64,000 bases of DNA. Source: Candidatus Omnitrophota bacterium (GTDB lineage Bacteria > Omnitrophota > Gorgyraeia > B26-G9). The stretch is taken from NCBI GenBank assembly GCA_043805415.1, contig JAZDHZ010000034.1, positions 101,478-165,477 of the forward strand, written 5' to 3'. The position numbers and the translations under genes were made by a program. The first letter of the stretch is position 1; each line of letters begins with the position of its first letter. This document shows positions 5,400-43,625 of the stretch, one piece after another. The notes under the pieces were generated by a model. That model was given only the letters and a program-made list of their open reading frames with translations. It was not told the origin of the DNA and made no database searches.

Positions 5400-5455
5400 G
5401 ATTGAATGGATCGCAACCCGCTGCAAAATAGCGTTGATCAAATATTATCTGAGCG

Positions 5456-5926: not shown

Positions 5927-6156
5927 TCGCGGAAAATATTGTTTCGCTGATTTTTAATATCTGCAAATATGGAAAAAAGATGTATTTTGATTAATAATTG
6001 TTTTATTATCCTTGCCTGAAAATACCCTGGAGTTAATAAAAACAGCAAAGAACAATAAACCCAGCCATGTTTTACTCTTATAATAAACCTAATACCTTAG
6101 TCATAACTAACTAAAAATAAAAGAGTAGTGTTTATTATAAAAAGCTCGCTAGTCCA

Positions 6157-6185
6157 TTGAAAAACATTGTTTTATGTGGTATACT
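6157..6185 (+). promoter_or_regulatory. Sigma70-type promoter for the giant amylomaltase-fusion gene
   Basis: TTGAAA at 6157-6162, 17-nt spacer, extended -10 TGgTATACT at 6177-6185. The gene starts about 70 nt downstream behind an AGGAG RBS. Confidence 0.55.
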
Positions 6186-6255
6186 TTCACGGTTTTTATA
6201 ATTTTTTATAACTCTAAATATGTCGGCTTGTTAGGTTAAGGTCAAAGGAGTAAAA

Positions 6256-11184: not shown

Positions 11185-11185
11185 T

Positions 11186-26244: not shown

Positions 26245-27012
26245 ATGAAAAATCCGCTGCATAACAAAATAATCTGTATGGTTTGCTTATTTATTGCAAT
26301 CAGCAATACTGCTTTACCGGTTTTTGCTTTGAATAATCCGGAATCAAGCCGAAAATATTGCCTTTCCCCGTTTTTACGTATAATCAATTCTGATTTTCAA
26401 TCCAGATTTGAGAGTCTAAACTCTGACTTATTAGACAATAATTTAAACATGCCAGGGGATCTGAAAAGCCGCGCGCTGGTAGTTGGCAGGACAAGCATAA
26501 TTTTTAATAACAAAGAAATGAGCTTTTTTGAATTAACAAAAAGCCTAAACCTTTTACTTGCCAATGATCGATTTACTTACTTTGCCAGAATTGAAAAAGA
26601 TATGGTTAAATATGCGGCATTAAGCACTGTAGAGCAGCTTTTACTTGCTTTAAAGCAGTCAGAATTATCAGAATATGCTGAGCAAATTGATATTATTCTG
26701 GCAATTTTGCATCTTTCCGCTGAAGACGCGGCAATTATCCTTAGCGGCATTGAACCTTTGCAGCAAAAATCAATTACTAATCTTACTGATAAGGCCTGGA
26801 CGAATAAATTCAGAATGAAACGATTCAGCTTAACCATGGGCTATGAGCTTGATATTGCTAAAGCTTGGTATGTTAAAACATTGGAAACAGAGGCTGAGGA
26901 AAGACAGTGGTGGCATGCTATGTGCCGCAATTCAATGCCTATGAATATGTTTAAGGGTTTGAATGCTGATTTGCAGAAAAAAAATCATGGCTTAATTGAT
27001 GCTTCAATTTAA
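26245..27012 (+). CDS. Hypothetical secreted protein (LSP-motif family)
   Basis: Signal peptide MKNPLHNKIICMVCLFIAISNTALPVFA then CLSPFLRI motif. No other recognisable motifs. Confidence 0.45.
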   Translation: MKNPLHNKIICMVCLFIAISNTALPVFALNNPESSRKYCLSPFLRIINSDFQSRFESLNSDLLDNNLNMPGDLKSRALVVGRTSIIFNNKEMSFFELTKSLNLLLANDRFTYFARIEKDMVKYAALSTVEQLLLALKQSELSEYAEQIDIILAILHLSAEDAAIILSGIEPLQQKSITNLTDKAWTNKFRMKRFSLTMGYELDIAKAWYVKTLETEAEERQWWHAMCRNSMPMNMFKGLNADLQKKNHGLIDASI

Positions 27013-27274: not shown

Positions 27275-28969
27275 ATGCATTGTATTTTTTTAAAAAACTT
27301 AGCAAGAGGATTGTTAGTTAATACTGGTTTGCTTGGTTTGCTGGTATTAGCGCAGCTGGTATTACCAGCAAGTTATTTGCACGCGCAGCAAAGCACTAGT
27401 TTTCTCAGCACCAAGATAGAAACATTGGAAGGCCCGAAGCTAAAGAAAACCGCCAAAGTAGAGCAAGTACTGAGGAACCTGGATATTCCCGCGGAATTAG
27501 GGTTTATTAAAGAAATCCACGTGCCCAAGACTCCGACAGAAAAAATGATCATCAATATCCAGGATCTGCATTGTAATTATAAAGCCCAGAAAAACATAGC
27601 CGGCATACTTGAATATTTAACCCAGACCTATGGCTTAAAACTAATCAGCGTAGAAGGCGGATCCGGGAAAATTGATACCAGTTTTTATCAGGATTTACCG
27701 GATGAAAAAATCAAAGAACAAGTCGCGGATTATTTTTTACGCGAAGCCAGAATAAACGGCACAGAATACTTTGCCATTACCACTGATCGGTTGATCCGCT
27801 TATATGGAGCGGAAGATGAAAAATACTATGATAAAAACCTGGACGCGTTTATGCGGGCCCTGCCGGCAAGGGAAATTATTCTGGAGACAATCGCTGTATT
27901 AGAAAATGATCTGAACATTCTAAAAAACAAAAGCTATAATAAAAAGCTCAGAGAACTTGATGATCATATCGTGGCCTATGACAATGGAGAAATGGGATTT
28001 GAAGACTATATCCAATACATATCCAGATTATCCGCGGAACAAAACGTAAAGCAGGAATTTGACCAGGTAAACCAGCTGGTAGAAAGCATTAAATTCAAAG
28101 ACTCGATAAGCATAGAAAAAGCCGAAGCCCAGAGAAAAGAACTGATTGATCATCTGACCAGTAATTTGTCTCGATACGAGATGGAAGAATTTTTAAAAGC
28201 AACCGTAGAATATAAAGCAAAAACCATGGACAATCTGACCTATCACAGCACCTTGCAGAAACTATACAATCAAATGGATAAAAAGAGCCTGACTTTAGAT
28301 CGGAAATGGCCGGATTTAAATGGATACATTGAATACTTAAAAAGACATGAGACCTTGGATAAATTCGCTTTATTTACCCAGATCGACAAACTAGTGGAAC
28401 GGATAAAAAACAGTTTATATACCAGCTATACGCAAAAGACATTAGATTATAATTTAAAGATCGTCAGACTAGCCAGAAGCTTATTTTCCACCAAGCTGCT
28501 GAATAAAGATCTAACTTTAGTCAGCAAATACCACACAGACTTTAATGCTAAAAAGATGAAGACATATATTCAAAAAGAAGCCAAGCGGTTAAAGCTTGAT
28601 TTAGCTATACCGGATGATGAGCGGTTAAAGCAAATGGAAGAGACTTTACCGGCAGTAGAAGATTTTTATCGCTATGCTTCGAAGCGCAATGATATCCTGG
28701 CCAATAATACTTTGGACGGCATGGCTAAAGAAAACGAAGACATCGGAATCCTGATCACCGGAGGATTTCATACTGATGGTATAACCGATTACTTAAAAGA
28801 CAAAAGAATAACTTATATTGTAATCGTGCCCAAGATCGAAGAGCTGGAAACAGATGATACCCGCTATATTAATGCTTTGCAGGGCAAGAAAACGCCGTTT
28901 GAGGAAATGATTGAAAAAGAAGATAAATCAGCAGTAACTCCAGAAACTGCTGATTCAGCAACCCCTTGA
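27275..28969 (+). CDS. Hypothetical secreted protein (564 aa)
   Basis: Signal peptide LLGLLVLAQLVLPASYLHAQQ. AGGAAGG RBS 6 nt upstream. No recognisable catalytic motifs. Confidence 0.5.
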   Translation: MHCIFLKNLARGLLVNTGLLGLLVLAQLVLPASYLHAQQSTSFLSTKIETLEGPKLKKTAKVEQVLRNLDIPAELGFIKEIHVPKTPTEKMIINIQDLHCNYKAQKNIAGILEYLTQTYGLKLISVEGGSGKIDTSFYQDLPDEKIKEQVADYFLREARINGTEYFAITTDRLIRLYGAEDEKYYDKNLDAFMRALPAREIILETIAVLENDLNILKNKSYNKKLRELDDHIVAYDNGEMGFEDYIQYISRLSAEQNVKQEFDQVNQLVESIKFKDSISIEKAEAQRKELIDHLTSNLSRYEMEEFLKATVEYKAKTMDNLTYHSTLQKLYNQMDKKSLTLDRKWPDLNGYIEYLKRHETLDKFALFTQIDKLVERIKNSLYTSYTQKTLDYNLKIVRLARSLFSTKLLNKDLTLVSKYHTDFNAKKMKTYIQKEAKRLKLDLAIPDDERLKQMEETLPAVEDFYRYASKRNDILANNTLDGMAKENEDIGILITGGFHTDGITDYLKDKRITYIVIVPKIEELETDDTRYINALQGKKTPFEEMIEKEDKSAVTPETADSATP

Positions 28970-29257: not shown

Positions 29258-32200
29258 ATGAATTATAAACAGAAATCAAAATTCAGGCTGATATTTAGAG
29301 TCATTGCCAGCGTGCTTTTACAGGCATTTTTATTTACAAATTTTGCCTGGTGCGGTGCTGATCAGTTTATTCAAGGCAATACTGTTTGCGCGCCGGCAAT
29401 TAGCAGTACAACTATTTCTCCCGCGATCCAAGTCACTGAAGCTTCAATTCAAACTCTTTTTGTTCAATCCGCCGCGTTCCAAATGGGCAAAAGAGCAGAG
29501 TTTAAAGGCCTTGATTCTTTAAAGCAGGCAGAAGTGGAAAATGCTTTAGGCGATAAATTTAGTTTAAGCCTGAATCTAAAAGGAAAGCTAAACACCGCGT
29601 CAGTTATTCAAAATATCGAAAAAAGAACAGATATCAAAGCGGATTATAAGAAGATCCTAAACGCGATGATCCTTGAATTCGGCAAACTGGATGTTAAGTT
29701 CTATTCATATGAGACATTAGTTGAGGACTTGTTCGGGTTTGCTTCTGCTGGCAATAAGATGATCGCGATTCATTCCTCGGTATTCAGTAATCCGATTGCT
29801 CAGACGCATGAAATCGGGGAATTCTTAGCGCAAGCAGGAATGCTGAATTTTTCGCTTGGCCAGGATGACCAGCTATTGATCAGCTTAAATGGCAGTTTAA
29901 TCGGCAGGATAAAATTATCGGAAGATGCTTTGGCAATCGCGAAGAAAGATCCGTCCAGTAACCATTATTTGCTGCGGGCTTTTCAACGGGAGGTTTTTCA
30001 GGATAAGGATCGGGCTTTAACCGCTGGGATTAAAAACAAGCAGGGGGATTTATCTTCCGCGATGAAAATTTTTCTTAAAACCATAAATGCTGAGACTGGA
30101 AACAAAGTTGAAGCAAGTATGTCTTTGTCTAAACTTAATGACCCGATGTTCGAGGCGCTGTTTAAAGATATTGAGTTTAATCGGTTTTCCGAAAACGATG
30201 CGGCAAAATTAAAGATAGCGATACTATTGCAGAATAACATTGCTATTGAGCCTATTGCTGAACCCTTGCTTCAAGAGTGCGGGATGCTGAATAAGGAATC
30301 CGCTGATCTTTATGAAACCATATTCCCGGCTGCGGGAACTCCTGGTTTTAGCCCAAAAAAATTATTCGCGAAAGAAAATGTTAATCCGGATAATCTGCAT
30401 CTTATCTTTGAATTAGCTAAGCGCTATAGTCCGATTAAAGCGTTTAGCGATAAGTTAGACAGAATCTACCGCGAGCTTGCCTTATACACATTGCCGGTAA
30501 GTCCGGGAGCAAGATATCATATATCTTTGCTTAAAGATCTAAACAGTATTTTATTGTCCGGAGGACGGATTAAAGAATCAAAGCACTCGCTTAGCGGTCA
30601 GGGTGTTTATTTCTTTGAAATGGGAAATTCCGGCTTAGTCAATGCGCAGACACGCTTAGCTGAGTTTTTCCCTTTTATCTCCAGCTCGCCGCATGATCTG
30701 GCAGATGCGGATTATGTGGTTAAGGCGTTCAGGCAAAAGATTGCCCGAGACGCGAAAGATAATGCCCGGATATTCCCGGTTGTAATCCAGGTTGCTGAGG
30801 ATATCCCGGCTGAAGCTGCGATGGGCTGGGCTTTTCGTGAGGATTATAAAAAGGCGGGAAAGCTTATCCGCGATGAACTTAATGCCCAAGAGTATGAATT
30901 TTTAATCAACCTGAATTATTTATATCTTAGCGAGAACCAAGCGGTTAAAAACCATTTGCTCGCGAAAAATATTATTAGAGAAGAAAACGGGATAATCAGG
31001 CTGGTTGATGCTTCGCGGGCGATTCAGGATGAAAACAAAAAGAATACGGGTTGGGCCAGAATGAGATTTGCTGACTTGCGTTATGAAGTGATCAATCTTT
31101 CCTACACAAAGCTGGATAGTGATATCCAGAAGCTTAGCGCCAAGATGGCTCAATTACTCCAGAATCTTCTCGCTGATAAAATGAGCGTATCTTCGGTTGT
31201 GGATACAGGCTCATCAAATCGCGGGCTTACTGTGGAAAATCCGGATTTTGATTTTCTGATTAAAATTAATTCCCCAGAGGATTTTACGGCAATTGTTAAG
31301 CTGCTGCTTGATGAAAAAATATTAGAAAATTTTCTCAAGGAGCATAAAGCTGCTTTTGAAGCGATCTATGGCGATAAGTCCGTGAGTATTGTCACCGAAC
31401 AGCCGCATGCCGTAGGCAAAGGCAATTTATATTTGTTTCCGTTTAAATTTGTCGCGGCTAACCGGATTGTCGGCGGGGTTGATTTTAATTTTTCCAAGCT
31501 TTCAGCGGGAAAAGCCGAGACTTTGAGCTATCACGAGACAGCGCGGCAGCAGCTGCAAGCCATACTGGATAAAGTTCCCGAAGCAGAACAAAAACAGCTT
31601 TCCCGCTATCTTGCCGGAGAAATTAAAACCCTTAAAAAATTAATTATAAATCAGGGTTTATATAAAGATAAGGATACAAAACGAAATAGATTTATCGGCG
31701 TGGCAGTAGAACAAATGATCTACAATCTCAGCGATTATCTGTCTATGCCAAGCAATATTTCCACTGCTGAAATTAAGAGCATATTTTCAATAAAAACCGC
31801 GCTTTATTTAATCAGCCGGATGGAAAGCGAAAGATTAAATGGTCTGTCATTTTCTCTGTATCAAAGAGCAAATGGAAGCGGGTTTTCTAATCAATCGGTA
31901 AAATACGATTTAAGGGATAATGAAAAATCAGTTATCCCTAAAGTTGGGACGGCTTTTGCCGGTTTTAAAGAGTTTTCAGAAGCGGAAAATGCCGGAGTGA
32001 AAAATAAAATTAAAGGATTAATAACTGATTTTATTAGCCGGCCGGGGAATAAGGTAAAAATTATTGAGTTTTTTGCCAGGTACAATAATGAAGTTGACGC
32101 GGCGATTGCTTTAGGTCAGGCGAAACCTTTTAGTAACTGGGAATTTTTTGAAAGATGGGAATTCACGCACCGGTTTTTTACTCTGCATAAAACAGAGATT

Positions 32201-32560
32201 GATATATTCGCGATAGATAAGACTGATATGTCTCAGGACGCGAAGCTGAAAATAGCGGAAATGATCAACGGATTAAAAGCCGGGATAACTGAGTCAATGG
32301 GTGTGAGTGAAGATAAAATTACCGGTCGGGAAATCACGCGGTGGTTTAAAACTCCTTCTTCGCGGAATAAGCAGCTGAGAGATTTTTATTTTCAATATGG
32401 GGCAATAACAGCAGAACCTATATCCATCCTGGGTTTTGCTGGGTTTTTAATGAATATTCCGGCATTGCGTTCGGCAGCTGATGCTGAGCGAAAAGCGGCG
32501 CCTTTAAGCGGTATTATAAACCGCAAGCCGCTCGAACAATTAGTCGGACAGTCAATATGA
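29258..32560 (+). CDS. Giant-family secreted protein (1100 aa) with a Pol-beta-type nucleotidyltransferase motif
   Basis: Leader MNYKQKSKFRLIFRVIASVLLQAFLFTNFAWC then TTISPAIQV. VVDTGSSNRGLTVENPDFDFLIK (about 31195-31260) matches hG[GS]-x10-DhDh of the minimal nucleotidyltransferase fold. AAGGGA RBS. Extended -10 TGTGGTATAAT at about 29064-29074. Confidence 0.6.
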   Translation: MNYKQKSKFRLIFRVIASVLLQAFLFTNFAWCGADQFIQGNTVCAPAISSTTISPAIQVTEASIQTLFVQSAAFQMGKRAEFKGLDSLKQAEVENALGDKFSLSLNLKGKLNTASVIQNIEKRTDIKADYKKILNAMILEFGKLDVKFYSYETLVEDLFGFASAGNKMIAIHSSVFSNPIAQTHEIGEFLAQAGMLNFSLGQDDQLLISLNGSLIGRIKLSEDALAIAKKDPSSNHYLLRAFQREVFQDKDRALTAGIKNKQGDLSSAMKIFLKTINAETGNKVEASMSLSKLNDPMFEALFKDIEFNRFSENDAAKLKIAILLQNNIAIEPIAEPLLQECGMLNKESADLYETIFPAAGTPGFSPKKLFAKENVNPDNLHLIFELAKRYSPIKAFSDKLDRIYRELALYTLPVSPGARYHISLLKDLNSILLSGGRIKESKHSLSGQGVYFFEMGNSGLVNAQTRLAEFFPFISSSPHDLADADYVVKAFRQKIARDAKDNARIFPVVIQVAEDIPAEAAMGWAFREDYKKAGKLIRDELNAQEYEFLINLNYLYLSENQAVKNHLLAKNIIREENGIIRLVDASRAIQDENKKNTGWARMRFADLRYEVINLSYTKLDSDIQKLSAKMAQLLQNLLADKMSVSSVVDTGSSNRGLTVENPDFDFLIKINSPEDFTAIVKLLLDEKILENFLKEHKAAFEAIYGDKSVSIVTEQPHAVGKGNLYLFPFKFVAANRIVGGVDFNFSKLSAGKAETLSYHETARQQLQAILDKVPEAEQKQLSRYLAGEIKTLKKLIINQGLYKDKDTKRNRFIGVAVEQMIYNLSDYLSMPSNISTAEIKSIFSIKTALYLISRMESERLNGLSFSLYQRANGSGFSNQSVKYDLRDNEKSVIPKVGTAFAGFKEFSEAENAGVKNKIKGLITDFISRPGNKVKIIEFFARYNNEVDAAIALGQAKPFSNWEFFERWEFTHRFFTLHKTEIDIFAIDKTDMSQDAKLKIAEMINGLKAGITESMGVSEDKITGREITRWFKTPSSRNKQLRDFYFQYGAITAEPISILGFAGFLMNIPALRSAADAERKAAPLSGIINRKPLEQLVGQSI

Positions 32561-32602
32561 ATATTCTCTAGGGCAATATGATTGGGTAAATGGAACAAGA
32601 TA

Positions 32603-35600
32603 ATGAATTATAAAAAATCAAAATTCAGGCTAATCTTTAGAATAATCTCATTAGTGCTTATCCAGGCATTTCTGGTGCTTGATTTTGCCTGGGCAATAGG
32701 CGGAGAATTTCCTATTGCTGATAAAATTTCTCAGGCTGCTACGCTTGCCCCGAAAATTAGTTTAAACACTCAGGAAGTCTGGGATGCTTATGTTTACAGT
32801 TCGCAAAATTCAGCTAAGATCAATGAACTTTCCTTACCTTCTGATCAGCCGATGGTTAATATTCCCAACCAATCTCCCCTGATCAGCCGGAGAGCGTTTT
32901 TCAAAACTGTTGGGCAAAAGGTTATTGGGGCTGCCGCGGTATTAACCGGAGCGGATCTGATATTGTCGGCGCCGGCAGAAGCCAGAGACTTAACCGTGGC
33001 TTTAAGCGATTTAGTGATCAATTTTGATAAAGGGGTTGCTGAAGCGGAGTTAAATAAATATATCGCGATTATTGAAGCTCAGGGTTTTAAAGAGTTATAC
33101 AGTTTAGAAAAAAAACAAGCGCAGACATTAATCAGAATTAAGGGGTTATTCCCGCTGAACGCGGAAAAATTATCTTACGCGCTTAATGCTCAGGCTAAAG
33201 CCAGAGGTCTGGCCAAAGGGTTTGTGGTCACAGCTAGTGACGCGAGCTGGAAGCAATCGCTTACTTATCGGAGCATGCAGGCTTTTGCGAATAAAGTAGC
33301 GCGTCTTTCAGCCAGCCTGGGATTCGGGGAGATCGATTCTCCGCAGCTTATTGGGCTTTATGAGGGGATTACCTGGGTTGAGAGTAAATTTAACCAATGG
33401 GAAACCGATGCCCAGGGCAGAATCAGACCAGTAAGGTCATATACCAATGCTATCGGAGTTACCCAGGTTATAGAATCTCAGGCTGTTAAGCAGATTGCCA
33501 GGTGGATAGTAACGCATAAGGGTGGAATATCCCGCTACGCGGAAATCATGAATGAGCTGGAAAGAATGATTTCCTCTGATAGTGAAAAGCTAAAGAAATC
33601 ACTCAAGGCGAATAAGAAATTCGGGGAAGAAGCCGAAGCCCTGAAACAGTTTAATGTCTATGCTGATTTCGCGGCTTATAAAAATGCCGGATCAGATATT
33701 GAAAAACAAAAACAGATAATTCAACGAATTCACAGAAAGATCAATAGTAATCCTAAGCTTATCGGCGTGAATTTATATTACGCGCTTGCTGTTTGGCAGT
33801 ATTTACAAAACAGGAATAATCTGCGAGCGGGAGTTACCGCTGAGCTTGCCGAATCAATGGGGCAAACCGGACAAGGGCTGACCAGAAAAAATCTTCCGCT
33901 TATTGAATCCGGTTCCGGGGCATATCAGCCAATGGATCTGGAAAAAGCCGGCTTGCAGTTTGAGAGTGATTATTTCCGCTTAAATCTGCTTTATCAAATG
34001 ATTAATCCCGAGAAGATTGCTGAGCTTTTGCAAGGCGCGGAAAGTAAAATATTAGTCAACACCATGGAATACTTATCGCGGCAGATGATGACAAAAATAG
34101 GCAACCAAAAGCTTGGCTATACTTATCTTACGCTGAACTGGGATCGATACCGCCGCCTGGAACTAAGGAAAAATAAAAATAATCAATATGAGTTTACCGA
34201 AAGGCCTTTAAGTTATTTTCAAAATAAGCCTAATGGTTTTTCCGTGAGTCTTGCCGCGGCAGCTTCATATAATTCCGGGACTGGCAGTGTGGACGATGCT
34301 TTGCTGAATTTTGGTAATGCCGTAGACGCGAATAATCTTCCCTTATGGATTAAAAATATGATCGGAGCCAATCCCCAAAATATTCGGGAGCCGATAAATT
34401 ATTTAAGGGTTTTTCTGGAAGATAAGTTTAATAATACCGGAGATCTCTCGGCCCAAGAGCAAAAAATTAAAAACGAGCTTATTGCCGAACGCTATAAACG
34501 CGTTTATAAAATCCAAGACCGATTGCTGGAAAAAAGAGCTTTAATCCACAAAAACAAGGTTCGGATATACGCGGCTTATCGGCGCGATGATGGTTTTGAT
34601 TATAAGCTGGCTGCCTGGGTTGCCCAGATCGCGGGCAGTGATTATGTGGATAGTTTTTTAAGAACCCATGGATTGGATAAAAAATGGCAAGAGGAAATTC
34701 TTAAATCTTCCCAGACACTTGATATTTTAGCACCGGCTTTGGCAGATGTGAATTCGCCGGGATATGCTGCCGCGGTAAATATCCGGCGGTATTTAGATTC
34801 AAAACAGCTGGCTTCTTTGGCTAAGCGGCAAGAAGCCTTTAAGTCTAAAGAACAGGCCCGGATCGCGAGAATTGAACTGGCTAAACAAATATCTAAGGAA
34901 AAACAATGGCAGAAAACCCTGGAGGGAATGACCAGCTGGGCAATGCGTTCCACGGTCGGGGTTGCTTCGCTTGGCGCGGCCGGCGCGATTGCCTGGATTA
35001 TAAACCGCAGGGTCAAGCTGGGTAAAAAACCAGTGCCTTCGCTTATCTATCGGCTGCCATTGCAGGGTTTTTGGATTCTGGGATTTGTTACTGTCCGGCT
35101 GTTCGCGATAGTTGGAAAAATTCTGTTTGGAACCGGTAAATATGTATTCAGCTTTTTTGCTAAAGCAAAACCGCGGATAAATAAACCAAGAAGCGCGCTT
35201 CTTGCCGATCAAAAGGTAGTTAGAAATAACCGGGTTAAACAAGCGGAAAACAGATATAAAAATAAGAACCGCTTTTTTTCAATAGCTAATTTAAAAAAAC
35301 TGATTCTGGGATCAATCTTACTGGCAATAATTGCCTGGCCTTTTGCTTCCCCGGCTTTTTCTCACGCGTCGCAAAAGCAGGCACAAGCTCCTCCGGCAAT
35401 TAGTTTAAGCCAAGAATTTAAAAAAGGCTTAATTGAAATCAGTAAGAAAAGTGACCATAAGCAGCTGAATGCTCAGGGCGAGCTTACCACAATAAAAGCT
35501 AATTTAAAAAAGAATCTTGAATTCAGCAATAGCAAAGCCCGGGAAAGGGTAGAGCAGATCAATCAGTTAGCGGAAAGAAATTGGCAAAAAGCGTATGTTA

Positions 35601-38600
35601 ATGGCGAATTAGATGAATACATAACAAAAAGAGGGCAGTCAGAAGATGCTCTTGCGATTGGCAAGGCGCTGTTTATTTTGCAAAGCGCTGCTCCGGAAAT
35701 TTATCAAGGTTTAAAAAAATATAATGCTTCTATATATCTGGCAGAGATCCCCTTCTATGGTTACGCGCGCGGTTCACGAGTATTTGGGCTTGGCGGCAAA
35801 CCAATGGTATTTGTAAATAAAGATTTTCTGAATAATCCTTTCAAAATCGCGCTTGTTTTATCTCACGAAGGTCATCACGCGATTCTTTTGCCCAAAGATT
35901 TACTGGAATCCGCGCTGCGGTATAATTTTTTTACTTTTATCAGGGATGTATTGTACAGTATTCCCCAGGGGGAAAAAGAAGCTTTCGAGATCCAGGCGGG
36001 AGTGGCCAGAGTTTTTTATATTGAGCCGATAAAAGGAAATATGTCTTATGACCCGCTTGATGTGGAAATTGCTTATGGTAGTCAGAAATGGCAAATAGTT
36101 GGGTTGGATATTTTAGGTACCGGCTTGTTCAATGTTATTCCTTTGATTGCCGGATGGTTAATCCTAAAGTTTTTTATGAATAGCAGCCGCGCTGGAAAAA
36201 GCCGAGATTATCAAAGATCAGGCAGCGGGGGATTGTCTAATCTGATAAACAGCAATTCAAGAAATAACAAGCGTCTGATTAGAAAAGGACGCGGTAAACG
36301 CAAAGGGAATTTCTTTTGGTCAATTATTTTAATCCCTTTGCTTGCTTTTCAATTCAGCAGTTTTCTTAGTCCCGCGATTACTCAAGCAAGTGATGTTTTT
36401 ATCCAGCCTCAGGAGAAAACAGAAATAACCGAGTATAAAAATGAACAGATTATAAATCCGATCCTTGGCACTGATCTTAAAGTAAACTCCCATTTTGGCC
36501 CACAGGAAGGAAAGCATAATAACGCGTTAGCTGATTGGTCCGAGGCGGTGATCAGAGGAGTTATTCAGCCCAACGCGGATATAATCCATGTTGATTTTCA
36601 TGCTGATGATTCCGGCGCGGTAATGGACGCGGATATGCTGGCCTTGAACGAAGTTAAGAATTTAAAAACTTCTCAGGAAAAAATCCAGGCAGTGCGGGAT
36701 ATCGCGGCTCATCTGAGAATAGATTCGTTTTATTACCCGGCTTATTTAACCGGACCAACCGGTCAATCAATATTGGGCACAACCTTTTGGGTTCGTCCGG
36801 AAGCAGAATGGCAGGGCGCGGCGAAAGAGCAATATATTGTCAGTGCTCCCTATGGAACGTTCCCCACGGATCATCCTGAGAAATATCCAAATGACAAGAG
36901 GATCAAAAGGTATGAGCTTAATGCCGATGATTTATCTTTAGTCGGGAAAAATGCTCAGTTAAAAAATGGGTTTATTCTGGACATTGATCTGGATTATTTT
37001 ACTTTGCATCGGGAAGATATGAATTGGGTTTATATGCGGGAGCTGCTTGAAAGAAAAGATGAAGCTTCTCAGAAATTAGCAAAGTCGATTCTTAAGACAG
37101 TCCACTATCAGCCGACCAGGCAGCAGCTGCAAAAAAATATTGATTTGTTTATTGACCAGCTCGCGAAGCTGCATGAACGCGGTATAGACCCGGGAATCAT
37201 TTCTGTTTTTGAATCACCGAATTTTACAGCTTATGCTGATGCTAAATGGGTAAATGACCAGTTAGTAAAGGGGTTCAAAGCTATTTACGGCAAAGGCTCT
37301 GCTTTAGCCGCGAAAGACCAGAAACCAAAGAGCGCGGCAAGCTCTGGCTGGAAAAAAATCTCAATCATGGGATTGGTGTCTGTAATCTCCGCGTCTTTTG
37401 CTAATTTGTTTTCCGTGGCTAATCTCTGGGCCATGGAAAATGGAGCGGATAAGGCTTTTGCTTCCTCTGATTTTAAATCAATAGTAACCTACCTTATCAC
37501 AATCGCCTTAATTGGCTTTTTAGTTAAATCGGGATTAAAAGCGCTTAGTTTAGCTAAACAAAAAAACGCGGAACAGCAGGCCGCGGTGATTGTTCCCAGC
37601 CAGGCGGCTTTGGATAAATTAAAAAAATTAGACACTGACATCAGCGCTTTATTTGCTCAAGGGAAAACTCAGGTTATTATCGCCTTTGACGGTCCCTCCG
37701 GCGCGGGCAAGACAACATTGGCTAATTATATTAAGGCAGTTGGTATTGCCGGAATACAGCCATCTGAAATACAGGTATTGTCGCGTGATGATTACGCGGT
37801 TGGCGGTGATTATAATGAGGCGAATATCGTGATTTTAGAAAAAATCTGGCATCGCGGAAAATTAGTTATTGTTGAGGGCAATGGAATCCAGTGGGCCAGT
37901 GCGGTATTAGCAGCAGATGCCGCGTATGCTAATCCGGATATATTTGTTAAAATAACCGCTGCTGAACAGCTGCGCAAACAAAGGCTATTAGAAAAAGGCT
38001 TGTCAGAGTCAGCGGCAAGTGAGCGGATTAGAACAGCATCTGGTCCTGATTCCGGTTTGTTTGATATTATTATTCAAGATCCTTATATCGAGGTTAACAG
38101 CTTGCGCAAGTCCGCGGAATATATAAAGGCTGAGAGCATATTGCGTTCATATCCTAATGACTCCGGCCTTGCTTTAATTCGTGAATTTGTCTTAGATCAA
38201 ATGCTTAGTTCTGATCGGCGCGGTATTATTGTTTATCATAATGAGCGCCATCTTAATGAGTTGTTTGAGTTTTTTGATGCAATATCAAAGCATTTACCGT
38301 TTAAAAATAAAGCCAGCGCCGAGCGTTTGATCCGCATGGCGATTTATCTGCATGATCTGGGCTACTTTTATTCAGAAGATGGATTGCTTATTCCTGGGCA
38401 TGAACAAAGAAGTAAAGATGAGGTTCTTGAATTTGTTAAGAAAAATCCCGGAATATTGTCCGCGGTTGAAGTCCAGTCGATTATGTATCTGATTGATAAA
38501 ACGCAGCTTAAAACCGGTGACGCGATTAAAAATGAAATCAGCGATGATAATAAAACCTATGACTTGCTGGATCGAATTAATAACGCGCAAGAATCAGGTT

Positions 38601-41542
38601 TAACTGCTGAGGATCAACAGTTTTTAGCAAGTTTTATGGAAAAAAACTTTCCGGACGCGAATCCGCGGAATCCGCGAGACCGGCAGCTGGTGCTGGATAC
38701 TATTTTGGGTGGCAAAGCCTTGGCTTTAGCGGATATCTGGGGCCAGGACCAGACATATCTTTATCAGGTTGCTTTATTAAGTCAGGAATTCCGTTATGAT
38801 AAACAGATAATGCTGAATAATAATGATCCTAACGCAGCCAAAAGCCCGGCAGCTATGAGCAATCTGGAACAGGTCGGGGGAAGCAGCGGATTCCAAAGCT
38901 TTGCTCAAGACATGAGGTTTGTTTTCTTTTTAAATAGCGCGGATTATCCGATGCTGGGCATGCAGCAGTATCTTGACGCGGAACAAAAGGAAAAACAAGC
39001 AAAAGGGGAAAAAGAAAAAGCGCTTATTGACCGCAGAACAGCGATGATTGAAAAGAGCAATCAGGTTCAATCTTTAACCAATGTTTTGACCAGCGGAGTT
39101 GATGAAAACCTTAATATCATCGGCCTGGCTAAAGACACTGATCAGCTTCCTCAGGTTATAGCTTTAAAAGAATTTATCGATGAAGGCCTTGGATTAGGCA
39201 TATACGATGACGCGCAAAAAGCGCAGTTAATCTCGGAAATAAACAGCAGAAACGGACTGATTTTCCGGGGAATAGACAATCAGTTTGATCTAGCGGTAGA
39301 CGCTGCTTACATCGCGGAGCTTGCTCCGACTGTTGATGATATATTAATCAGTTCAAAATTTGCTGAAATTTTAAGTGAGCAGGAATTAGCGGAATTGACT
39401 TCTTCCTGGGAGATTAAGAAGTTTTCTCCTGGTCAAGCGATTGTCCAACAGGATATTCCTGATGCGCAAGGGGTTTTTCTGATCCTATCCGGAAATCTGG
39501 ATGTTTTTGTCAATGGATATCATGTGGGGGAAATTCCTCAGGGTGAGCTGTTTGGGGAAATGTCAGTGCTTGATAGTGCTTTGCGCAGCGCCACTGTAAG
39601 AGTTTCTCAGCTTGCCAGCCAGCAGGCGGTAATCGCGGAAATACCAGCGCCTGTATTCACTAAATTATTCGGGGCAAACCGACAGCTGAAACAAAAGATT
39701 AAAGCCCTGATTCAGACAAGAAAAGAAAATTCGCGAAAGGTTTTGGACGCGGAAGAAGAAAAAGATGATGAAGTAAAATTAAAACATAAATTTGAAAGCG
39801 GCCAGCTGGATACAGTGGTTTTTGTTGATGTTGATCTGATGCGTTTAACCAATCAGTATGTTGCCAAGAAAAATGTGAATGTTTTGCTTGATGTTCTGGA
39901 AACAGAATTTGAAAAAGTGATAAAAGCTCTGGGCGCTGAAAATGCCGTAAGCCTGCGCCGCGGAGGAGATGAATTTATTCTGGCAATTAATTCCCGCGAA
40001 AATAAGCAGCAAGCGATTGATATTGCCGCAAAACTTAAAAATAATGTTCAGAGCGCGAAATTTTCGCTTGCTTCAATCGGAACTGACAGGCTTTCTCAGG
40101 AAAGAATCGCGGAAATCGAAAGTTTTGGATGCGGCATAGACACGATCGGTAAGCATAATATTATAATTGTTGGGCAGAAAACAGGCGGTAAAACAGGCCG
40201 GGCTTGTGTGCAGGAATTTCTCGATACAGTCAATGCCATTAGCAGCTTAAAAAATCCGGAAAACCCGGAAGCGGAAGTTTTAAGCATTCAAAGCTCTTGG
40301 CTGGACCAGCCGGCTGTTAACAATGAAGTTAGTTTTACCTTGTCAATCGGCTTGGCAAATGTATCTGAAATTGACAATGTGCCTGGATCTAATCTTTATG
40401 AAAAAGCGCGCAACTTCGCGGCGCAAAGAAAAGATAAATCAAAAGAAATATTTAAAAAACTCGGAGATGGACATATTGAAGCTGTTTCCAGTTTCGCGCC
40501 CTTGGGCGTGGCTGGGGAGAGTATTCTTTTGACTGAGCAAGCAATTGCTGAGCACGCAGATTTCGAACAGCTGCAGGCTGAAGCTAATCGCCTGGAAGCT
40601 GAGCAAATGGAAGCTGAGCAAATCCCGACAGGCATCAGGCATAAGTTTGCCGAAGGTGAGGAGGTATTGTATTTTTCTTCAGAAAATGCCGCGCGGAGTC
40701 ATCTTAACGCGATGCGAGACAATCAGGAACTTAATGCGGCGATTGCTTTTTCGCTGCAAGGATTGGGTTATTATGATCAGGAAGGAAAGATTGATCAATA
40801 TAAAGCGGAATACTACACTTCCCCTGGGGCAGTTAAAGATAATCGGATAGATATCCGTGATTTTAAAGTGGTTAATGAAGCGCATGGCTATGTGGCGGGT
40901 GATGAAATTATCGCGCGCCTGCGCATCGGCGCGATGCGCTTTGCCAGGTTATTTGAGAACTTTGATCTGGTATTTGCCCGCGGCCCTCCGGCAGGACCAA
41001 ATGGATTTCTTATTCCAAAAACAAAACAAGCCGCTGAAATGAACCCAACAGAAGTGCAGGTAATGTTTGTTGAATATATGCGGCAAATAAGAGATTATTT
41101 TAATAAACCGAATGAATCGGCTGTAAAAGTCGGGCAGTTAAGAGTTGTTTGGGATCGAGTTAGCCAAGAGGATAAAAATATCGGAAATGTGATCGAGCGG
41201 ATTAGTCAGACACGCGCGGTTTATGAACAAAAAACTAAACCGAAAAAAGGCAGAAACATGGTTTTAAGATATGATCCTAGTATCCCGGATAAGTGGAGCT
41301 CATTAGCGGAACTTAATGCCCCGGATGCTGTCGCGCAGCTTGAGAATCTTAAAATTATATGGCAGCAAAATAAGCAGCAGTTAGATGCTTTTGCTAATTC
41401 CCGGAAAGTTAGCGGAACCCTGAGACTTGGCACAAAGATTGATTCCATAGATCCTGGATTGCGCGGACCTGCGTTTTCTCTGCAAGGTGATAATCTTAAT
41501 CAGCAATCAAAAAATATCTCTCTTCTGGAACAAGCGATTTAA
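32603..41542 (+). CDS. Giant-family mosaic membrane/secreted protein (~2979 aa): SLT-like lytic transglycosylase, HExxH, uridine-kinase/PRK-like P-loop, HD phosphohydrolase, cNMP-binding, GGDEF, degenerate GGDEF
   Basis: Leader MNYKKSKFRLIFRIISLVLIQAFLVLDFAWA then ATLAPKISL. Internal Tat-like ISRRAFFKTVG...ILSAPAEA (~32883). SLT-like GITWVESKFN...NAIGVTQVIESQA (~33300-33560). SHEGHHAIL (~35866). IIAFDGPSGAGKTTLANYI...QVLSRDDY (~37690). HD: YHNERHLNELF...IYLHDLGY (~38230-38560). cNMP: ELFGEMSVLDSALRSATV (~39380-39720). GGDEF: VVFVDVDLMRLTNQYV...SLRRGGDEFILAI (~39790-40280). Second GGDEF-like DIRDFKVVNEAHGYVAGDEIIARL lacks the GGDEF residues (~40830-41050). Several TM helices. Confidence 0.7.
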   Translation: MNYKKSKFRLIFRIISLVLIQAFLVLDFAWAIGGEFPIADKISQAATLAPKISLNTQEVWDAYVYSSQNSAKINELSLPSDQPMVNIPNQSPLISRRAFFKTVGQKVIGAAAVLTGADLILSAPAEARDLTVALSDLVINFDKGVAEAELNKYIAIIEAQGFKELYSLEKKQAQTLIRIKGLFPLNAEKLSYALNAQAKARGLAKGFVVTASDASWKQSLTYRSMQAFANKVARLSASLGFGEIDSPQLIGLYEGITWVESKFNQWETDAQGRIRPVRSYTNAIGVTQVIESQAVKQIARWIVTHKGGISRYAEIMNELERMISSDSEKLKKSLKANKKFGEEAEALKQFNVYADFAAYKNAGSDIEKQKQIIQRIHRKINSNPKLIGVNLYYALAVWQYLQNRNNLRAGVTAELAESMGQTGQGLTRKNLPLIESGSGAYQPMDLEKAGLQFESDYFRLNLLYQMINPEKIAELLQGAESKILVNTMEYLSRQMMTKIGNQKLGYTYLTLNWDRYRRLELRKNKNNQYEFTERPLSYFQNKPNGFSVSLAAAASYNSGTGSVDDALLNFGNAVDANNLPLWIKNMIGANPQNIREPINYLRVFLEDKFNNTGDLSAQEQKIKNELIAERYKRVYKIQDRLLEKRALIHKNKVRIYAAYRRDDGFDYKLAAWVAQIAGSDYVDSFLRTHGLDKKWQEEILKSSQTLDILAPALADVNSPGYAAAVNIRRYLDSKQLASLAKRQEAFKSKEQARIARIELAKQISKEKQWQKTLEGMTSWAMRSTVGVASLGAAGAIAWIINRRVKLGKKPVPSLIYRLPLQGFWILGFVTVRLFAIVGKILFGTGKYVFSFFAKAKPRINKPRSALLADQKVVRNNRVKQAENRYKNKNRFFSIANLKKLILGSILLAIIAWPFASPAFSHASQKQAQAPPAISLSQEFKKGLIEISKKSDHKQLNAQGELTTIKANLKKNLEFSNSKARERVEQINQLAERNWQKAYVNGELDEYITKRGQSEDALAIGKALFILQSAAPEIYQGLKKYNASIYLAEIPFYGYARGSRVFGLGGKPMVFVNKDFLNNPFKIALVLSHEGHHAILLPKDLLESALRYNFFTFIRDVLYSIPQGEKEAFEIQAGVARVFYIEPIKGNMSYDPLDVEIAYGSQKWQIVGLDILGTGLFNVIPLIAGWLILKFFMNSSRAGKSRDYQRSGSGGLSNLINSNSRNNKRLIRKGRGKRKGNFFWSIILIPLLAFQFSSFLSPAITQASDVFIQPQEKTEITEYKNEQIINPILGTDLKVNSHFGPQEGKHNNALADWSEAVIRGVIQPNADIIHVDFHADDSGAVMDADMLALNEVKNLKTSQEKIQAVRDIAAHLRIDSFYYPAYLTGPTGQSILGTTFWVRPEAEWQGAAKEQYIVSAPYGTFPTDHPEKYPNDKRIKRYELNADDLSLVGKNAQLKNGFILDIDLDYFTLHREDMNWVYMRELLERKDEASQKLAKSILKTVHYQPTRQQLQKNIDLFIDQLAKLHERGIDPGIISVFESPNFTAYADAKWVNDQLVKGFKAIYGKGSALAAKDQKPKSAASSGWKKISIMGLVSVISASFANLFSVANLWAMENGADKAFASSDFKSIVTYLITIALIGFLVKSGLKALSLAKQKNAEQQAAVIVPSQAALDKLKKLDTDISALFAQGKTQVIIAFDGPSGAGKTTLANYIKAVGIAGIQPSEIQVLSRDDYAVGGDYNEANIVILEKIWHRGKLVIVEGNGIQWASAVLAADAAYANPDIFVKITAAEQLRKQRLLEKGLSESAASERIRTASGPDSGLFDIIIQDPYIEVNSLRKSAEYIKAESILRSYPNDSGLALIREFVLDQMLSSDRRGIIVYHNERHLNELFEFFDAISKHLPFKNKASAERLIRMAIYLHDLGYFYSEDGLLIPGHEQRSKDEVLEFVKKNPGILSAVEVQSIMYLIDKTQLKTGDAIKNEISDDNKTYDLLDRINNAQESGLTAEDQQFLASFMEKNFPDANPRNPRDRQLVLDTILGGKALALADIWGQDQTYLYQVALLSQEFRYDKQIMLNNNDPNAAKSPAAMSNLEQVGGSSGFQSFAQDMRFVFFLNSADYPMLGMQQYLDAEQKEKQAKGEKEKALIDRRTAMIEKSNQVQSLTNVLTSGVDENLNIIGLAKDTDQLPQVIALKEFIDEGLGLGIYDDAQKAQLISEINSRNGLIFRGIDNQFDLAVDAAYIAELAPTVDDILISSKFAEILSEQELAELTSSWEIKKFSPGQAIVQQDIPDAQGVFLILSGNLDVFVNGYHVGEIPQGELFGEMSVLDSALRSATVRVSQLASQQAVIAEIPAPVFTKLFGANRQLKQKIKALIQTRKENSRKVLDAEEEKDDEVKLKHKFESGQLDTVVFVDVDLMRLTNQYVAKKNVNVLLDVLETEFEKVIKALGAENAVSLRRGGDEFILAINSRENKQQAIDIAAKLKNNVQSAKFSLASIGTDRLSQERIAEIESFGCGIDTIGKHNIIIVGQKTGGKTGRACVQEFLDTVNAISSLKNPENPEAEVLSIQSSWLDQPAVNNEVSFTLSIGLANVSEIDNVPGSNLYEKARNFAAQRKDKSKEIFKKLGDGHIEAVSSFAPLGVAGESILLTEQAIAEHADFEQLQAEANRLEAEQMEAEQIPTGIRHKFAEGEEVLYFSSENAARSHLNAMRDNQELNAAIAFSLQGLGYYDQEGKIDQYKAEYYTSPGAVKDNRIDIRDFKVVNEAHGYVAGDEIIARLRIGAMRFARLFENFDLVFARGPPAGPNGFLIPKTKQAAEMNPTEVQVMFVEYMRQIRDYFNKPNESAVKVGQLRVVWDRVSQEDKNIGNVIERISQTRAVYEQKTKPKKGRNMVLRYDPSIPDKWSSLAELNAPDAVAQLENLKIIWQQNKQQLDAFANSRKVSGTLRLGTKIDSIDPGLRGPAFSLQGDNLNQQSKNISLLEQAI

Positions 41543-41728
41543 ATTATTCCTAATTTATAAGTAATTACTTGCCAAGCACTTACAATCCTGGAAAACCCTG
41601 CGCCAAAACCCCTGATTTGCTTGTAAAACCATAAGCTTTATGGTATACTTAAAACCTTTTTAAATTAATACAAAAGTGTGTAACATCTTTATTTACTATT
41701 AGTTAATGTTTAATGCGAGGAGTTGATT

Positions 41729-43429
41729 TTGAACTTAAAATTTCTTAAATGCGCAATGATTTTATTTATGGTTTTTCTCCTGAATACAAAAAATTGCTTT
41801 GCTGATTTGCTTTCTGAATCTTTTCTTAGCCCGGTATCAAATATTGATCTGGGATCATTGCAAAAAACATTTACCTATTTAGTAAATGAGCAAACTTATT
41901 CAGAATATAAAGCAATCTTTGAAATCAATGATCAGGATAAACCGCGGCGCGATCTTAAAGCGCGGGATTTAGAAGATTTTTTACAAGTCATAACCGATAT
42001 TCGCTTGATCCTGGAAATGTTTTCCCAGGGAAATGCGTTTAAAGGAATTATGAACCAGGCAGATAAAGAAACAATAGATGATTTCCTGAGCAATCATCCG
42101 GATGAGATTGAGCTGCTGAAAGATTCAGGAATTAAACCTGTTCTTAGCGCTATCCTTGAGCGCGCTTTGGCGCAGCTGGCTGCAAGGCAAAGAGCGGTCC
42201 CGTCTTTGGCTGAAACCATGTATAAGGAATTAATTTTTAGATTAAAAACAAAGCTGGAAACAGCCGCGGGAATGCTTAAGACAGGCATGCCGATTAAATC
42301 AATCAATTTTAATCAGGAAATACTTTCCTATCTAAAACCAGAAACCCTTAACCGGATAATCGAAAACATTAACTGGCAAAATCAAGACCCTGATGATTAT
42401 AGCGGGCAAAGAAAGATTATTTTAAACCTGGATAAACCAATTGTTTTGGAAAACGGTAAAATAATCAACTCAATTGAAATCAAAGGAGTTGTTTACCGAA
42501 AAGATGAGGTTGCGGTTACTCCTTTACAGGAGAGGTTTAACACAATAAAAGTTCCAAGATTAGACAAAAACAATCTAACTGCTTTGAAAAAAAGAGTACA
42601 TTTAAAAGGCGGAATGCCTTTTGCCGCGGCTAAAAGAGAATATATGATTTTAGAAAAACTTTACGCGCAAGGTAATTACCAGTATGATTATCCCATCGGA
42701 TACGGCAGGTATAAGAATTATACGTTCCAGGGCAAACAATTTGGATTTATCATCACAGGTGTGGAAAATTCAAGGCGAACAAGAATGGGCGACTGGTTTT
42801 TTGATAACTATCAGGAGATTTTTGATTTACTCACGATTGATAAAGTCAGATTCGCTAATTTAGCAGTAGAACTCTTTGAGGTTCATGAAACTTTTCTCAG
42901 GCATTATGGCCGGGAGTTGCGGAGGTTTCATGACAGCGGATTTTATCATGGTTATCCGCATACTTTAAATGTAAGCTGGGATAAAGAATTTAAAAATATC
43001 GTGCTTAATGATTTTGAAGCCAGCAAGCTGATTTCCCATTTGCCTGTTGAAAAAAGAGTTGGCTACCGATTGATAGATCTAAGCTCGGCTTATGCCCATT
43101 TTATTTACTTTCTTACCAATGATCGGGATTTAATGGAACTAGCGGCGTTTTCCGAAGGCATGAATCATCTGAATAATCCTTTTCGCTATTTTCTTCAGGG
43201 GTATTTTGGCAATGATTTGCCAAATTTTAATTTTGATGGTTTTATGAGTGAAGCTATTTATCCGGCGGTTGTGTCCGGGGTAGATGTGATTAATGACCTG
43301 GATCAGGATATTGTGAGTAAACTTTTGAATATTGAAGGCGCGGATTATAAGCGAGTTAAGTATATTGATCAAATTGTTTTTGATGCGCAGGGCTTTGTAA
43401 ATGAACTTGCCTGTCAAGAAGCGATCTAG
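41729..43429 (+). CDS. Hypothetical secreted protein (LSP-motif family)
   Basis: GAGGAG RBS 6 nt before the TTG at 41729 (alternative starts at 41723 or 41756). Signal peptide ...FLLNTKNCFA then FLSPVSNI. No recognisable catalytic motifs. Confidence 0.45.
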   Translation: MNLKFLKCAMILFMVFLLNTKNCFADLLSESFLSPVSNIDLGSLQKTFTYLVNEQTYSEYKAIFEINDQDKPRRDLKARDLEDFLQVITDIRLILEMFSQGNAFKGIMNQADKETIDDFLSNHPDEIELLKDSGIKPVLSAILERALAQLAARQRAVPSLAETMYKELIFRLKTKLETAAGMLKTGMPIKSINFNQEILSYLKPETLNRIIENINWQNQDPDDYSGQRKIILNLDKPIVLENGKIINSIEIKGVVYRKDEVAVTPLQERFNTIKVPRLDKNNLTALKKRVHLKGGMPFAAAKREYMILEKLYAQGNYQYDYPIGYGRYKNYTFQGKQFGFIITGVENSRRTRMGDWFFDNYQEIFDLLTIDKVRFANLAVELFEVHETFLRHYGRELRRFHDSGFYHGYPHTLNVSWDKEFKNIVLNDFEASKLISHLPVEKRVGYRLIDLSSAYAHFIYFLTNDRDLMELAAFSEGMNHLNNPFRYFLQGYFGNDLPNFNFDGFMSEAIYPAVVSGVDVINDLDQDIVSKLLNIEGADYKRVKYIDQIVFDAQGFVNELACQEAI

Positions 43430-43625
43430 GCTCAAATATTAAAATTTTTAAAAAAATTGTAATCTTTATACTTATTCAAAAGAGGTTGTTTTTTTTAGTG
43501 GCTGTTCTGCCGCGGGTAGTGAGCTTATTGAGTTTTTTGTGGCTCAATCAATATAGTCGAAGTATTTATCTTGCCTTGTTGTTTCTCCCTTGCTAAAATG
43601 ATATTTATCAAGGAGGACACTAAAA

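Follow-up and report, generated by a model that had tools for sequence, protein, structure and literature searches.

A conserved leader and LSP box at the N-termini of large, otherwise unrelated Omnitrophota proteins

Why should several very large and otherwise unrelated bacterial proteins begin with the same 65 or so residues? The question is raised by a stretch of 64,000 nucleotides, here called the window, from a Candidatus Omnitrophota bacterium (GenBank assembly GCA_043805415.1, contig JAZDHZ010000034.1, positions 101,478 to 165,477). Omnitrophota are uncultured, very small bacteria to which a predatory or parasitic life is ascribed (PMC10066038). They stand out for their huge proteins, and where these reside and what they do is still puzzling. 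Two preprints describe Omnitrophota giant proteins with the same domain repertoire as those considered here; cytoplasm-type enzyme domains are predicted to be extracellular in them, and these predictions are questioned. An earlier note on the window had picked out five proteins with a common N-terminus and unrelated cargo, and had proposed a dedicated sorting or secretion signal. The answer favoured here, to which we give about an even chance, is that these N-termini of about 65 residues form a two-part module for export and sorting that is specific to one clade, a subgroup of Omnitrophota. Its parts are a leader that resembles a signal peptide and, after a linker, a short element called the LSP box.

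The five open reading frames (ORFs) lie at the starts given in the earlier note. They are named by their first position and listed with their leaders and boxes; a bar marks the predicted signal peptidase I site, and bit scores refer to a family profile hidden Markov model (HMM).

6256-11184, + strand: module-bearing gene, 1642 residues, glycoside hydrolase family 77 (GH77) 4-alpha-glucanotransferase cargo, single hydrophobic segment, 43.8 bits
6256-6351, + strand: leader of 6256, residues 1-32, ending ...SIFA|Q
6388-6441, + strand: LSP box of 6256, residues 45-62, STLSPHLSIGMNLIQAIF
11186-15142, + strand: module-bearing gene, 1318 residues, alpha-glucan-water-dikinase-type Ig-like N domain, single hydrophobic segment, 54.7 bits
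11186-11275, + strand: leader of 11186, residues 1-30, ending SWA|A
11315-11368, + strand: LSP box of 11186, residues 44-61, ATLSPSLQISADALKQYF
29258-32560, + strand: module-bearing gene, 1100 residues, zero Pfam domains, leader as sole hydrophobic segment, product 100% identical to NCBI hypothetical protein V1747_07845
29258-29353, + strand: leader of 29258, residues 1-32, MNYKQKSKFRLIFRVIASVLLQAFLFTNFAWC, predicted site AWC|G, 58.4 bits
29408-29461, + strand: LSP box of 29258, residues 51-68, TTISPAIQVTEASIQTLF
32603-41542, + strand: module-bearing gene, 2979 residues, at least five hydrophobic segments beyond the leader, internal SRRAFFK near residue 93
32603-32695, + strand: leader of 32603, residues 1-31, MNYKKSKFRLIFRIISLVLIQAFLVLDFAWA, predicted site AWA|I, 75.9 bits
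32738-32791, + strand: LSP box of 32603, residues 46-63, ATLAPKISLNTQEVWDAY, extended segment then helix in the AlphaFold2 (AF2) model
53147-55489, + strand: module-bearing gene, 780 residues, weak sub-cutoff S-adenosylmethionine (SAM) methyltransferase matches, 26.3 bits
53147-53239, + strand: leader of 53147, residues 1-31, ending AWA|G
53249-53302, + strand: LSP box of 53147, residues 35-52, NTLSPVAVVSNANFKKAF, linker of just 3 residues

Relatedness among these proteins is confined to the N-terminus. The first ~70 residues can be aligned among all five, and the first 85 match one another with BLASTP E-values of 1e-14 to 5e-4. When these 85 residues are left out, no pairwise BLASTP match at E ≤ 0.1 is found among nine motif-bearing proteins of the window (the five above and four listed below). 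The shared N-terminus and the unrelated cargo of the earlier note are thereby confirmed. Its label of a paralogous family misleads, relatedness being limited to the first ~65 residues, and it had paired the TLSP-type strings with the wrong ORFs; they belong to 6256 (STLSPHLSI), 11186 (ATLSPSLQI), 29258 (TTISPAIQV), 32603 (ATLAPKISL) and 53147 (NTLSPVAVV). The described core ending, F(A/S)WA, holds in part, as ORF 6256 has ...SIFA instead. A shared promoter or 5' untranslated element upstream of the five genes was also considered, and none is visible in a DNA alignment.

The shared N-terminus extends well past the window. A profile of 67 positions, built from 11 N-termini (those of nine window proteins and of homologues P0002 and P0005), was searched exhaustively with hmmsearch against 1.84 billion representatives of clusters that are at most 50% identical. 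It matches 170 clusters at E ≤ 1e-3 and 14 at E ≤ 1e-10, nearly always at target residues 1-65. Hits P0014 and P0035 were dropped as matches to internal repeats rather than to the N-terminal module, and P0016 for want of a single aligned stretch. A word-index homology search with a short N-terminal alignment returned nothing, its index being too coarse for 70-residue queries. The members are mostly large, as had been claimed: their median length is 781 residues, and they range from fragments to 3711 residues, plus one of 7410 residues (P0155, an 'AAA family ATPase') that begins with the same leader.

A logo built from 134 cluster representatives displays the two parts. After a start rich in K and R, the leader reads F-[KR]-I-I-[AS]-L-[IV]-L-I-Q-A-F-L-x-x-[DN]-x-A-W-[AC]-G-G, and after a variable linker of 12-16 residues the box reads [SD]-T-L-[SA]-P-x-[LVI]-x-[IL]-[NDS]-x3-[FLI]-[QK]-x2-[FY]. 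The core Q of the leader is kept in 92%, the F after Q-A in 89%, the D/N in 90%, the W in 66% and the A/C at position -1 in 88%, and in the box L reaches 95%, S/A 94%, P 96% and the final F/Y 85%, all of them upper estimates, since the profile itself picked the hits. Even as upper estimates, these figures set conserved positions clearly apart from free ones: Q, F, D/N, W, L-S-P and F are kept, and neighbouring positions and the linker vary freely, a position-specific pattern that indicates selection. In most members the P follows the Q at a distance of 24-30 residues, most often 29. In the ortholog pair 32603/P0005, the module is 74% identical vs 52% elsewhere. Within the leader, Q and D/N are kept to an unusual degree, which suggests that something specific recognises the leader too.

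The leader has the layout of a Sec and signal peptidase I substrate, with a basic n-region, a hydrophobic core of ~13 residues (IIALvLIQAFLvl) within the usual 7-15 or so, a polar D/N and A-W-(A/C)|G. The logo has A, S, V or C at position -3 and A, C or S at -1, which fits the -3/-1 rule of signal peptidase I, and the short core resembles those of cleaved signal peptides. From these features, Sec dependence and cleavage at AWA|GG are predicted. The flanking charge is +4 on the N-terminal side and -1 on the C-terminal side. This bias is seen in 132 of 133 members, and an N-in, C-out orientation is therefore predicted. By hydropathy, the leader is the only hydrophobic segment in 55 of 133 members, among them 6256, 11186, 29258 and 53147. 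An AF2 model from a 76-sequence alignment has a confident helix at residues 3-32, coil through the linker and the T-L-x-P-x-Φ-x-Φ core of the box (Φ, hydrophobic), and a helix from the N/D/S position. A folded N-terminal domain was rejected, the model being helix-coil-helix only; its predicted TM-score (pTM) of 0.35 suggests a linear signal, not a folded domain.

The box appears to be a more general element than the leader, because it also follows unrelated signal peptides. It stands behind non-consensus signal peptides in several ORFs of locus L001 and in four further ORFs of the window, each with an ordinary signal peptide and then the box.

3057-3809, + strand: GNAT-like protein of 250 residues, weak Pfam matches with only FR47 barely above cutoff, generic signal peptide CFA|L
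3129-3179, + strand: LSP box of 3057, DALSPRLSLDKTTFQGY
26245-27012, + strand: protein of 255 residues, no Pfam domain, generic signal peptide VFA|L
26356-26409, + strand: LSP box of 26245, YCLSPFLRIINSDFQSRF
41723-43429, + strand: protein of 568 residues, no Pfam domain, generic signal peptide CFA|D
41819-41872, + strand: LSP box of 41723, degenerate, SFLSPVSNIDLGSLQKTF
48991-51357, + strand: protein of 788 residues, no Pfam domain, signal peptide ...AFA|L
49108-49161, + strand: LSP box of 48991, VFLAPYLTIDATSIQTSA

The occurrence of the box at N-termini of the window exceeds chance: a box regular expression matches 8 times inside residues 21-80 of 35 window proteins vs once in the remaining 16,159 positions (Fisher p = 2.4e-7). 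The nine module or box genes take up 29,067 of the 64,000 nucleotides, or 45% of the window. Ordinary exported proteins of the window do not have the box. It is missing from a GH26 enzyme (1926), a GH 'catalytic core' enzyme (51738), an amidase_3 lipoprotein (55738), a Peptidase_MA/TPR protein (23061) and a DUF4139 protein (16039), which have plain signal peptides or lipoboxes. The window lipoproteins 47937 and 55738 have ...GC motifs without the module, and the cytoplasmic housekeeping proteins have no hydrophobic N-terminus. Separately, a 63-codon ORF (43405-43593, + strand) directly upstream of a GH116 gene (43626) holds a leader-like fragment, KIFKKIVIFILIQ (local HMM E 0.016), which may be a decayed leader remnant.

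Which organisms have the module? All profile hits that bear a phylum name belong to Candidatus Omnitrophota/Omnitrophica. In addition, all GTDB r232 species genomes were scanned with a DNA pattern for L-I-Q-A-F-L-x2-[DN]-x2-W-[ACGS], which has a per-protein sensitivity of ~24% and, from its information content, ~13 expected chance matches. The scan gave 37 matches, and a local HMM from 133 N-termini was used to part true from chance matches. The complete module heads large ORFs at all 25 loci (26 matches) in metagenome-assembled genomes (MAGs) labelled Omnitrophota or PVC: 22 of 22 loci from nine 'Candidatus Omnitrophota' MAGs, together with loci in one 'PVC group' MAG and two 'uncultured Planctomycetia' MAGs. 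It is present at none of the 11 pattern loci from unrelated taxa, whose number is near the chance expectation; two of these (L014 and L039) have a short weak match to the LIQAF stretch only, with no LSP box. The scan had no match from Velamenicoccus-titled records, a genome whose presence in the collection is unconfirmed, and the strict consensus is probably missing from V. archaeovorus by this indirect route. Both searches uphold the restriction to one clade: the module is confined to a subgroup of Omnitrophota, in which it is common and occurs in tandem. The same DNA pattern found 36 stretches in JGI metagenomes, 16 of them with the complete module. Consecutive module genes number six in L065, where they take up nearly the entire 13.8-kb stretch (1-13789), and four each in L059 and L064; clustering is also seen at L001, L002, L004 and L006.

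By its domain matches, the cargo consists of cytoplasm-type enzymes that use SAM, nucleoside triphosphates (NTPs) or nucleoside diphosphate (NDP) sugars. Pfam searches of 62 members identified SAM methyltransferases, GGDEF, HEAT, AAA ATPases, GT1/GT4 glycosyltransferases, trehalose synthase (TreT), HD, PGM/PMM and CBM48, and one member is a fusion of GalE, UDP-glucose pyrophosphorylase (UDPGP) and a HAD hydrolase. The cargo calls of the earlier note on the five window proteins fared unevenly in Pfam and NCBIfam. GH77, Ig_N_CWD1 and cNMP-binding domains are present, and GGDEF and methyltransferase appear as weak sub-cutoff matches; SLT, HEAT and an NTase fold were undetected in these proteins, HD occurs only in a homologue, and GH13 is a trace only. 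All methyltransferase matches in 53147 lie below curated cutoffs (best Methyltransf_31, 24.4 bits vs a cutoff of 27). The cargo of 32603 includes UPF0489/peptide-arginase-like, P-loop kinase-like and cNMP-binding regions, with GGDEF at 22.9 bits vs a cutoff of 23.8. Residues 75-258 of the 29258 protein (29480-30031) form a domain with no Pfam match, marked by QMGKRAEF...EDLFGFA...HYLLRAFQRE and also NPIAxxHE, which is present three times in the 1843-residue P0003.

How might a module of this kind work? Its first part would be a Sec-type signal peptide of unusually fixed sequence with a near-invariant Gln in its core, and its second part, 12-16 variable residues on, the LSP box, whose extended stretch leads into an N-capped amphipathic helix. 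The first part would carry the N-terminus over the inner membrane, N-terminus in and C-terminal side out, and would probably be cleaved. The LSP box would then be left as an exposed periplasmic peptide near the new N-terminus. In single- and multi-segment members alike, the box is predicted to be periplasmic and near the membrane or new N-terminus. A common partner, such as a receptor, chaperone, protease or outer-membrane route, would read the box, leading to retention, docking or onward transport. The module would be placed in this way on unrelated, mostly very large cargo whose genes lie in tandem arrays. Much of the proposed dedicated sorting or secretion signal has stood, namely the conserved module, the unrelated cargo, the single clade and the large members; we infer the dedicated sorting step and its reader, no cognate peptidase, sortase-like enzyme or translocon having been found at the loci examined.

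Several observations weigh against this explanation. Selection of hits by the profile inflates the apparent conservation in the logo, and in the pair 29258/P0002 the module is no better conserved than the cargo. Additional hydrophobic segments occur in 76 of 133 members, often with a second at about residues 90-130, and in such multi-segment members the module may be no more than the first of several membrane helices. The word 'secreted' in the earlier note is not apt for all members, because more than half have further membrane-spanning segments. Enzyme domains that use SAM, NTPs, NDP-sugars or c-di-GMP normally work in the cytoplasm and are a poor fit with export. Finally, no cognate enzyme or translocon recurs beside module genes at ~40 loci.

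The search for a partner relied on a neighbourhood survey, an all-against-all clustering of 602 ORFs from 30 sources with loci of 8-28 kb. A signal-peptidase, sortase or rhomboid-like partner was not found in this survey, and three further contexts held nothing recurrent. The radical SAM/HemN, GH116, SmpB and Peptidase_MA/TPR families are common to three genomes each and reflect conserved synteny. The only non-module family common to more than three genomes is that of one ORF of the window.

27275-28969, + strand: associated exported protein of the erythromycin-esterase (EreA)/ChaN/TraB/TIKI superfamily, not a clear module carrier

In five other genomes, 32603-type module genes have a 27275 homologue (62-84% identity) just upstream, and fusions join the 27275 domain to 29258-like repeats in P0003 and to a 32603-like region in P0007. 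Its structure model rests on a 3-sequence alignment. The 27275 protein is a lead and not an established reader of the box, because the association occurs in one syntenic context only, in 6 genomes. Another protein, P0072 (L079 18364-19701), is a 445-residue multi-pass membrane protein that itself carries the module. A weak precomputed Peptidase_A8 (LspA) hit on P0072 did not recur with hmmscan at E ≤ 0.1; its NxGxG and FNLAA look like LspA motifs to the eye, and the catalytic Asp positions are changed.

Could the leader instead stay in the membrane? It may be an uncleaved signal-anchor followed by a membrane-proximal stalk, which would tether or organise enzymes at the inner membrane with no onward sorting. 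The Gln and Asp/Asn would then make helix-helix contacts, the LSP box would be a short periplasmic element of the anchor, and a second helix would give a hairpin that keeps the cargo cytoplasmic. Polar residues as frequent as the Q and D/N are unusual in the hydrophobic helix of a discarded peptide, and the spacing from the transmembrane (TM) segment to the box is constrained. The extra TM-like segments of 76 members, with their common second segment, also suit an anchor, which would reconcile cytoplasm-type cargo with a membrane location in multi-pass members, and the giant-protein preprints report mostly TM or signal peptide plus TM architectures. However, the core has just ~13 residues, with a textbook A-x-A site after it. 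The 55 members without a second segment, which include four of the five original proteins, would still have their cargo outside, and the box also stands behind quite different generic signal peptides. On balance, the anchor is somewhat unlikely. A reading in which nothing is exported has a slimmer chance still. Here the hydrophobic N-terminus would hold the cargo inside the cell, for example by a reversed orientation, by peripheral insertion or by targeting to an internal compartment or scaffold, which would suit the cofactor needs of the enzymes. The cargo is overwhelmingly of cytoplasm type, and a giant-protein preprint doubts some predicted extracellular locations. The charge bias predicts the opposite, N-in and C-out, and the n/h/c arrangement with its AxA site is canonical. 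Known targeting peptides of bacterial microcompartments (BMC) and encapsulins are amphipathic, whereas the leader helix is hydrophobic throughout.

A different kind of explanation concerns ancestry rather than function. An ordinary signal peptide could have been copied among tandem genes by duplication and recombination or by gene conversion, so that the module would be a recently spread 5' gene segment with no dedicated function. Module genes do lie in tandem arrays, and DNA identity between the neighbouring leaders of 29258 and 32603 is 73% for the initial ~99 nucleotides vs 45% in the next 300. This leader-limited identity (29258-29356 vs 32603-32698) suggests local copying or gene conversion confined to the leader. 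However, members fall into at least 170 clusters below 50% identity, drawn from many samples and no fewer than 12 GTDB species genomes, and the position-specific conservation of the module across 170 clusters is unexplained by local copying. The LSP box is also retained even with an unrelated signal peptide. We consider it very unlikely that such copying accounts for the module.

If the two-part export and sorting module is kept as the preferred explanation, is it a signal already described? The searches identified it with none, in line with the earlier note, which did not recognise it. The first 80 residues of ten leaders gave only scattered sub-threshold noise at E ≤ 10 in Pfam-A 2025 and NCBIfam 20.0, and the full-length window proteins have no N-terminal match in either. 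The two giant-protein preprints do not mention a conserved leader or box, and 'LIQAFL' was not found in a literature text search. The known signal types tested also fail. Tat (twin-arginine translocation) signals have a twin arginine in S/T-R-R-x-F-L-K where the n- and h-regions join; a Tat signal was rejected, with RR in 8 of 133 leaders, KK in 28, no basic pair in 77 and no TAT_signal match on the leader. A lipobox for signal peptidase II, L-(A/S)-(G/A)-C with an invariant Cys at +1, does not fit, as Cys stands at the relevant position in just 14% of members and is preceded by Trp. A type IV prepilin signal would require a short basic leader, then G|(F/M)-T-L-x-E with the hydrophobic helix behind the cleavage site; this motif is absent from the logo, and there is no N_methyl match in NCBIfam at E ≤ 10. 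The YSIRK-G/S (TIGR01168) and KxYKxGKxW (TIGR03715) motifs are likewise absent, with no NCBIfam match at E ≤ 10 for ten leaders. A double-glycine leader (C39 peptidase/PCAT) would be amphipathic and of non-membrane type, with an invariant GG (or GA/GS) at -2/-1 and conserved hydrophobic residues at -4, -7 and -12; here, the two Gly positions are just 55% and 39% conserved and the helix is fully hydrophobic; GG is found in only one of the five window proteins (AWAIGG), two residues later than in the consensus. As far as the searched literature and databases show, the module is undescribed and looks like a specialised N-terminal sorting signal.

Likeness to known systems is a matter of analogy, not membership. 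By function, the closest bacterial analogue would be the accessory Sec system (SecA2/SecY2), in which proteins such as GspB of Gram-positive cocci have a KxYKxGKxW-type signal peptide and an AST domain at the mature start. Both pair a family-specific signal peptide with a second element in the first ~20 mature residues of very large proteins. However, there is no sequence relationship, Omnitrophota are diderm, and the cargo here is diverse enzymes rather than serine-rich adhesins. SecA2/SecY2-type genes were not found adjoining module genes at the loci examined. YSIRK-G/S signals of staphylococci and streptococci similarly have a conserved sequence within a cleavable signal peptide that marks an exported subset for a given route or site; unlike them, the module has its motif in the h-region and not the n-region, a second box in the mature part and no LPXTG partner. 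The lipoprotein export signal (LES) of Bacteroidota and TonB boxes are also short mature N-terminal elements of envelope proteins, read by a periplasmic or outer-membrane partner and used for a second sorting step or as a strand-pairing dock, and the alternating Φ-x-Φ of the LSP box is a strand pattern. Here, there is no lipid anchor (Cys in 14%, at -1 after Trp) and the consensus differs. The prepilin-type signal on PVC families (e.g., DUF1559) is likewise lineage-expanded and the only part shared is an N-terminal hydrophobic signal, whereas cleavage of the module is predicted at the C-terminal and not the N-terminal end of the helix.

Tat signals resemble the module in having a basic n-region beside a hydrophobic core and in cofactor-type enzyme cargo. 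In contrast, the core of the module is strongly hydrophobic and its c-region acidic, and some members carry SRRxF(L/F)K downstream of the module. This internal Tat-like motif (SRRAFFK, SRREFFK, GRRTFLK or SRRDFLL) lies 30-50 residues past the LSP box and is followed by a mildly hydrophobic stretch. It is carried by 32603 (~32870-32960, residues ~90-120), P0005, P0012, P0028, P0047 and P0081, the last with a sub-threshold Pfam TAT_signal match (E 0.012).

Overall, the nearest analogue may be eukaryotic. Plasmodium PEXEL (RxLxE/Q/D) and oomycete RxLR-dEER proteins also have a signal peptide and then a short motif within a few tens of residues. They too form large, fast-diversifying, clustered families with unrelated cargo in organisms with a presumed life at the expense of other cells. 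The PEXEL motif is cut by a protease, and onward export is licensed in this way. These systems are based on the endoplasmic reticulum and their motif is unrelated. An unlikely but far-reaching extension of the analogy would make the module a bacterial counterpart of these host-targeting signals, tagging dozens of large effectors that use nucleotide cofactors. The effectors would be methyltransferases, GGDEF/cNMP proteins, AAA ATPases, glycosyltransferases, and glycogen or sugar-nucleotide enzymes. Sec export would be followed by recognition or trimming at the LSP box, possibly by the TIKI/TraB-like 27275 protein, and by transfer over the outer membrane into prey or host cells, which would supply the cofactors. 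If true, this would explain export signals on cytoplasm-type enzymes in a presumed predatory or parasitic phylum and would give a sequence rule for listing effectors.

Two other genes of the window may be recorded here. An SMC chromosome-segregation protein (17669-21625, + strand) has a glycogen-binding insert after the hinge, at residues 667-744, with AMPK1_CBM at E 3e-13 and a weaker CBM_48 match at E 4e-4, slightly below cutoff. The pairing of SMC with a glycogen-binding module is odd, and the leader-tagged proteins of the same genome include several alpha-glucan enzymes. In an ORF of 156 residues (5456-5926, + strand), the match to a penicillin-binding-protein transpeptidase domain is limited to the C-terminal part of that domain; the ORF may be a gene fragment or have a miscalled start.

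For Omnitrophota, the leader of ~65 residues offers a searchable rule, as an HMM or a regular expression, for this protein class in genomes of the clade. It also gives a testable handle on the topology and sorting of their large proteins and a starting point toward the machinery that reads it. The module may help to show where the large proteins of Omnitrophota go in the cell. If the box is indeed a second-step sorting or host-targeting signal, it would represent a new bacterial protein-sorting route.

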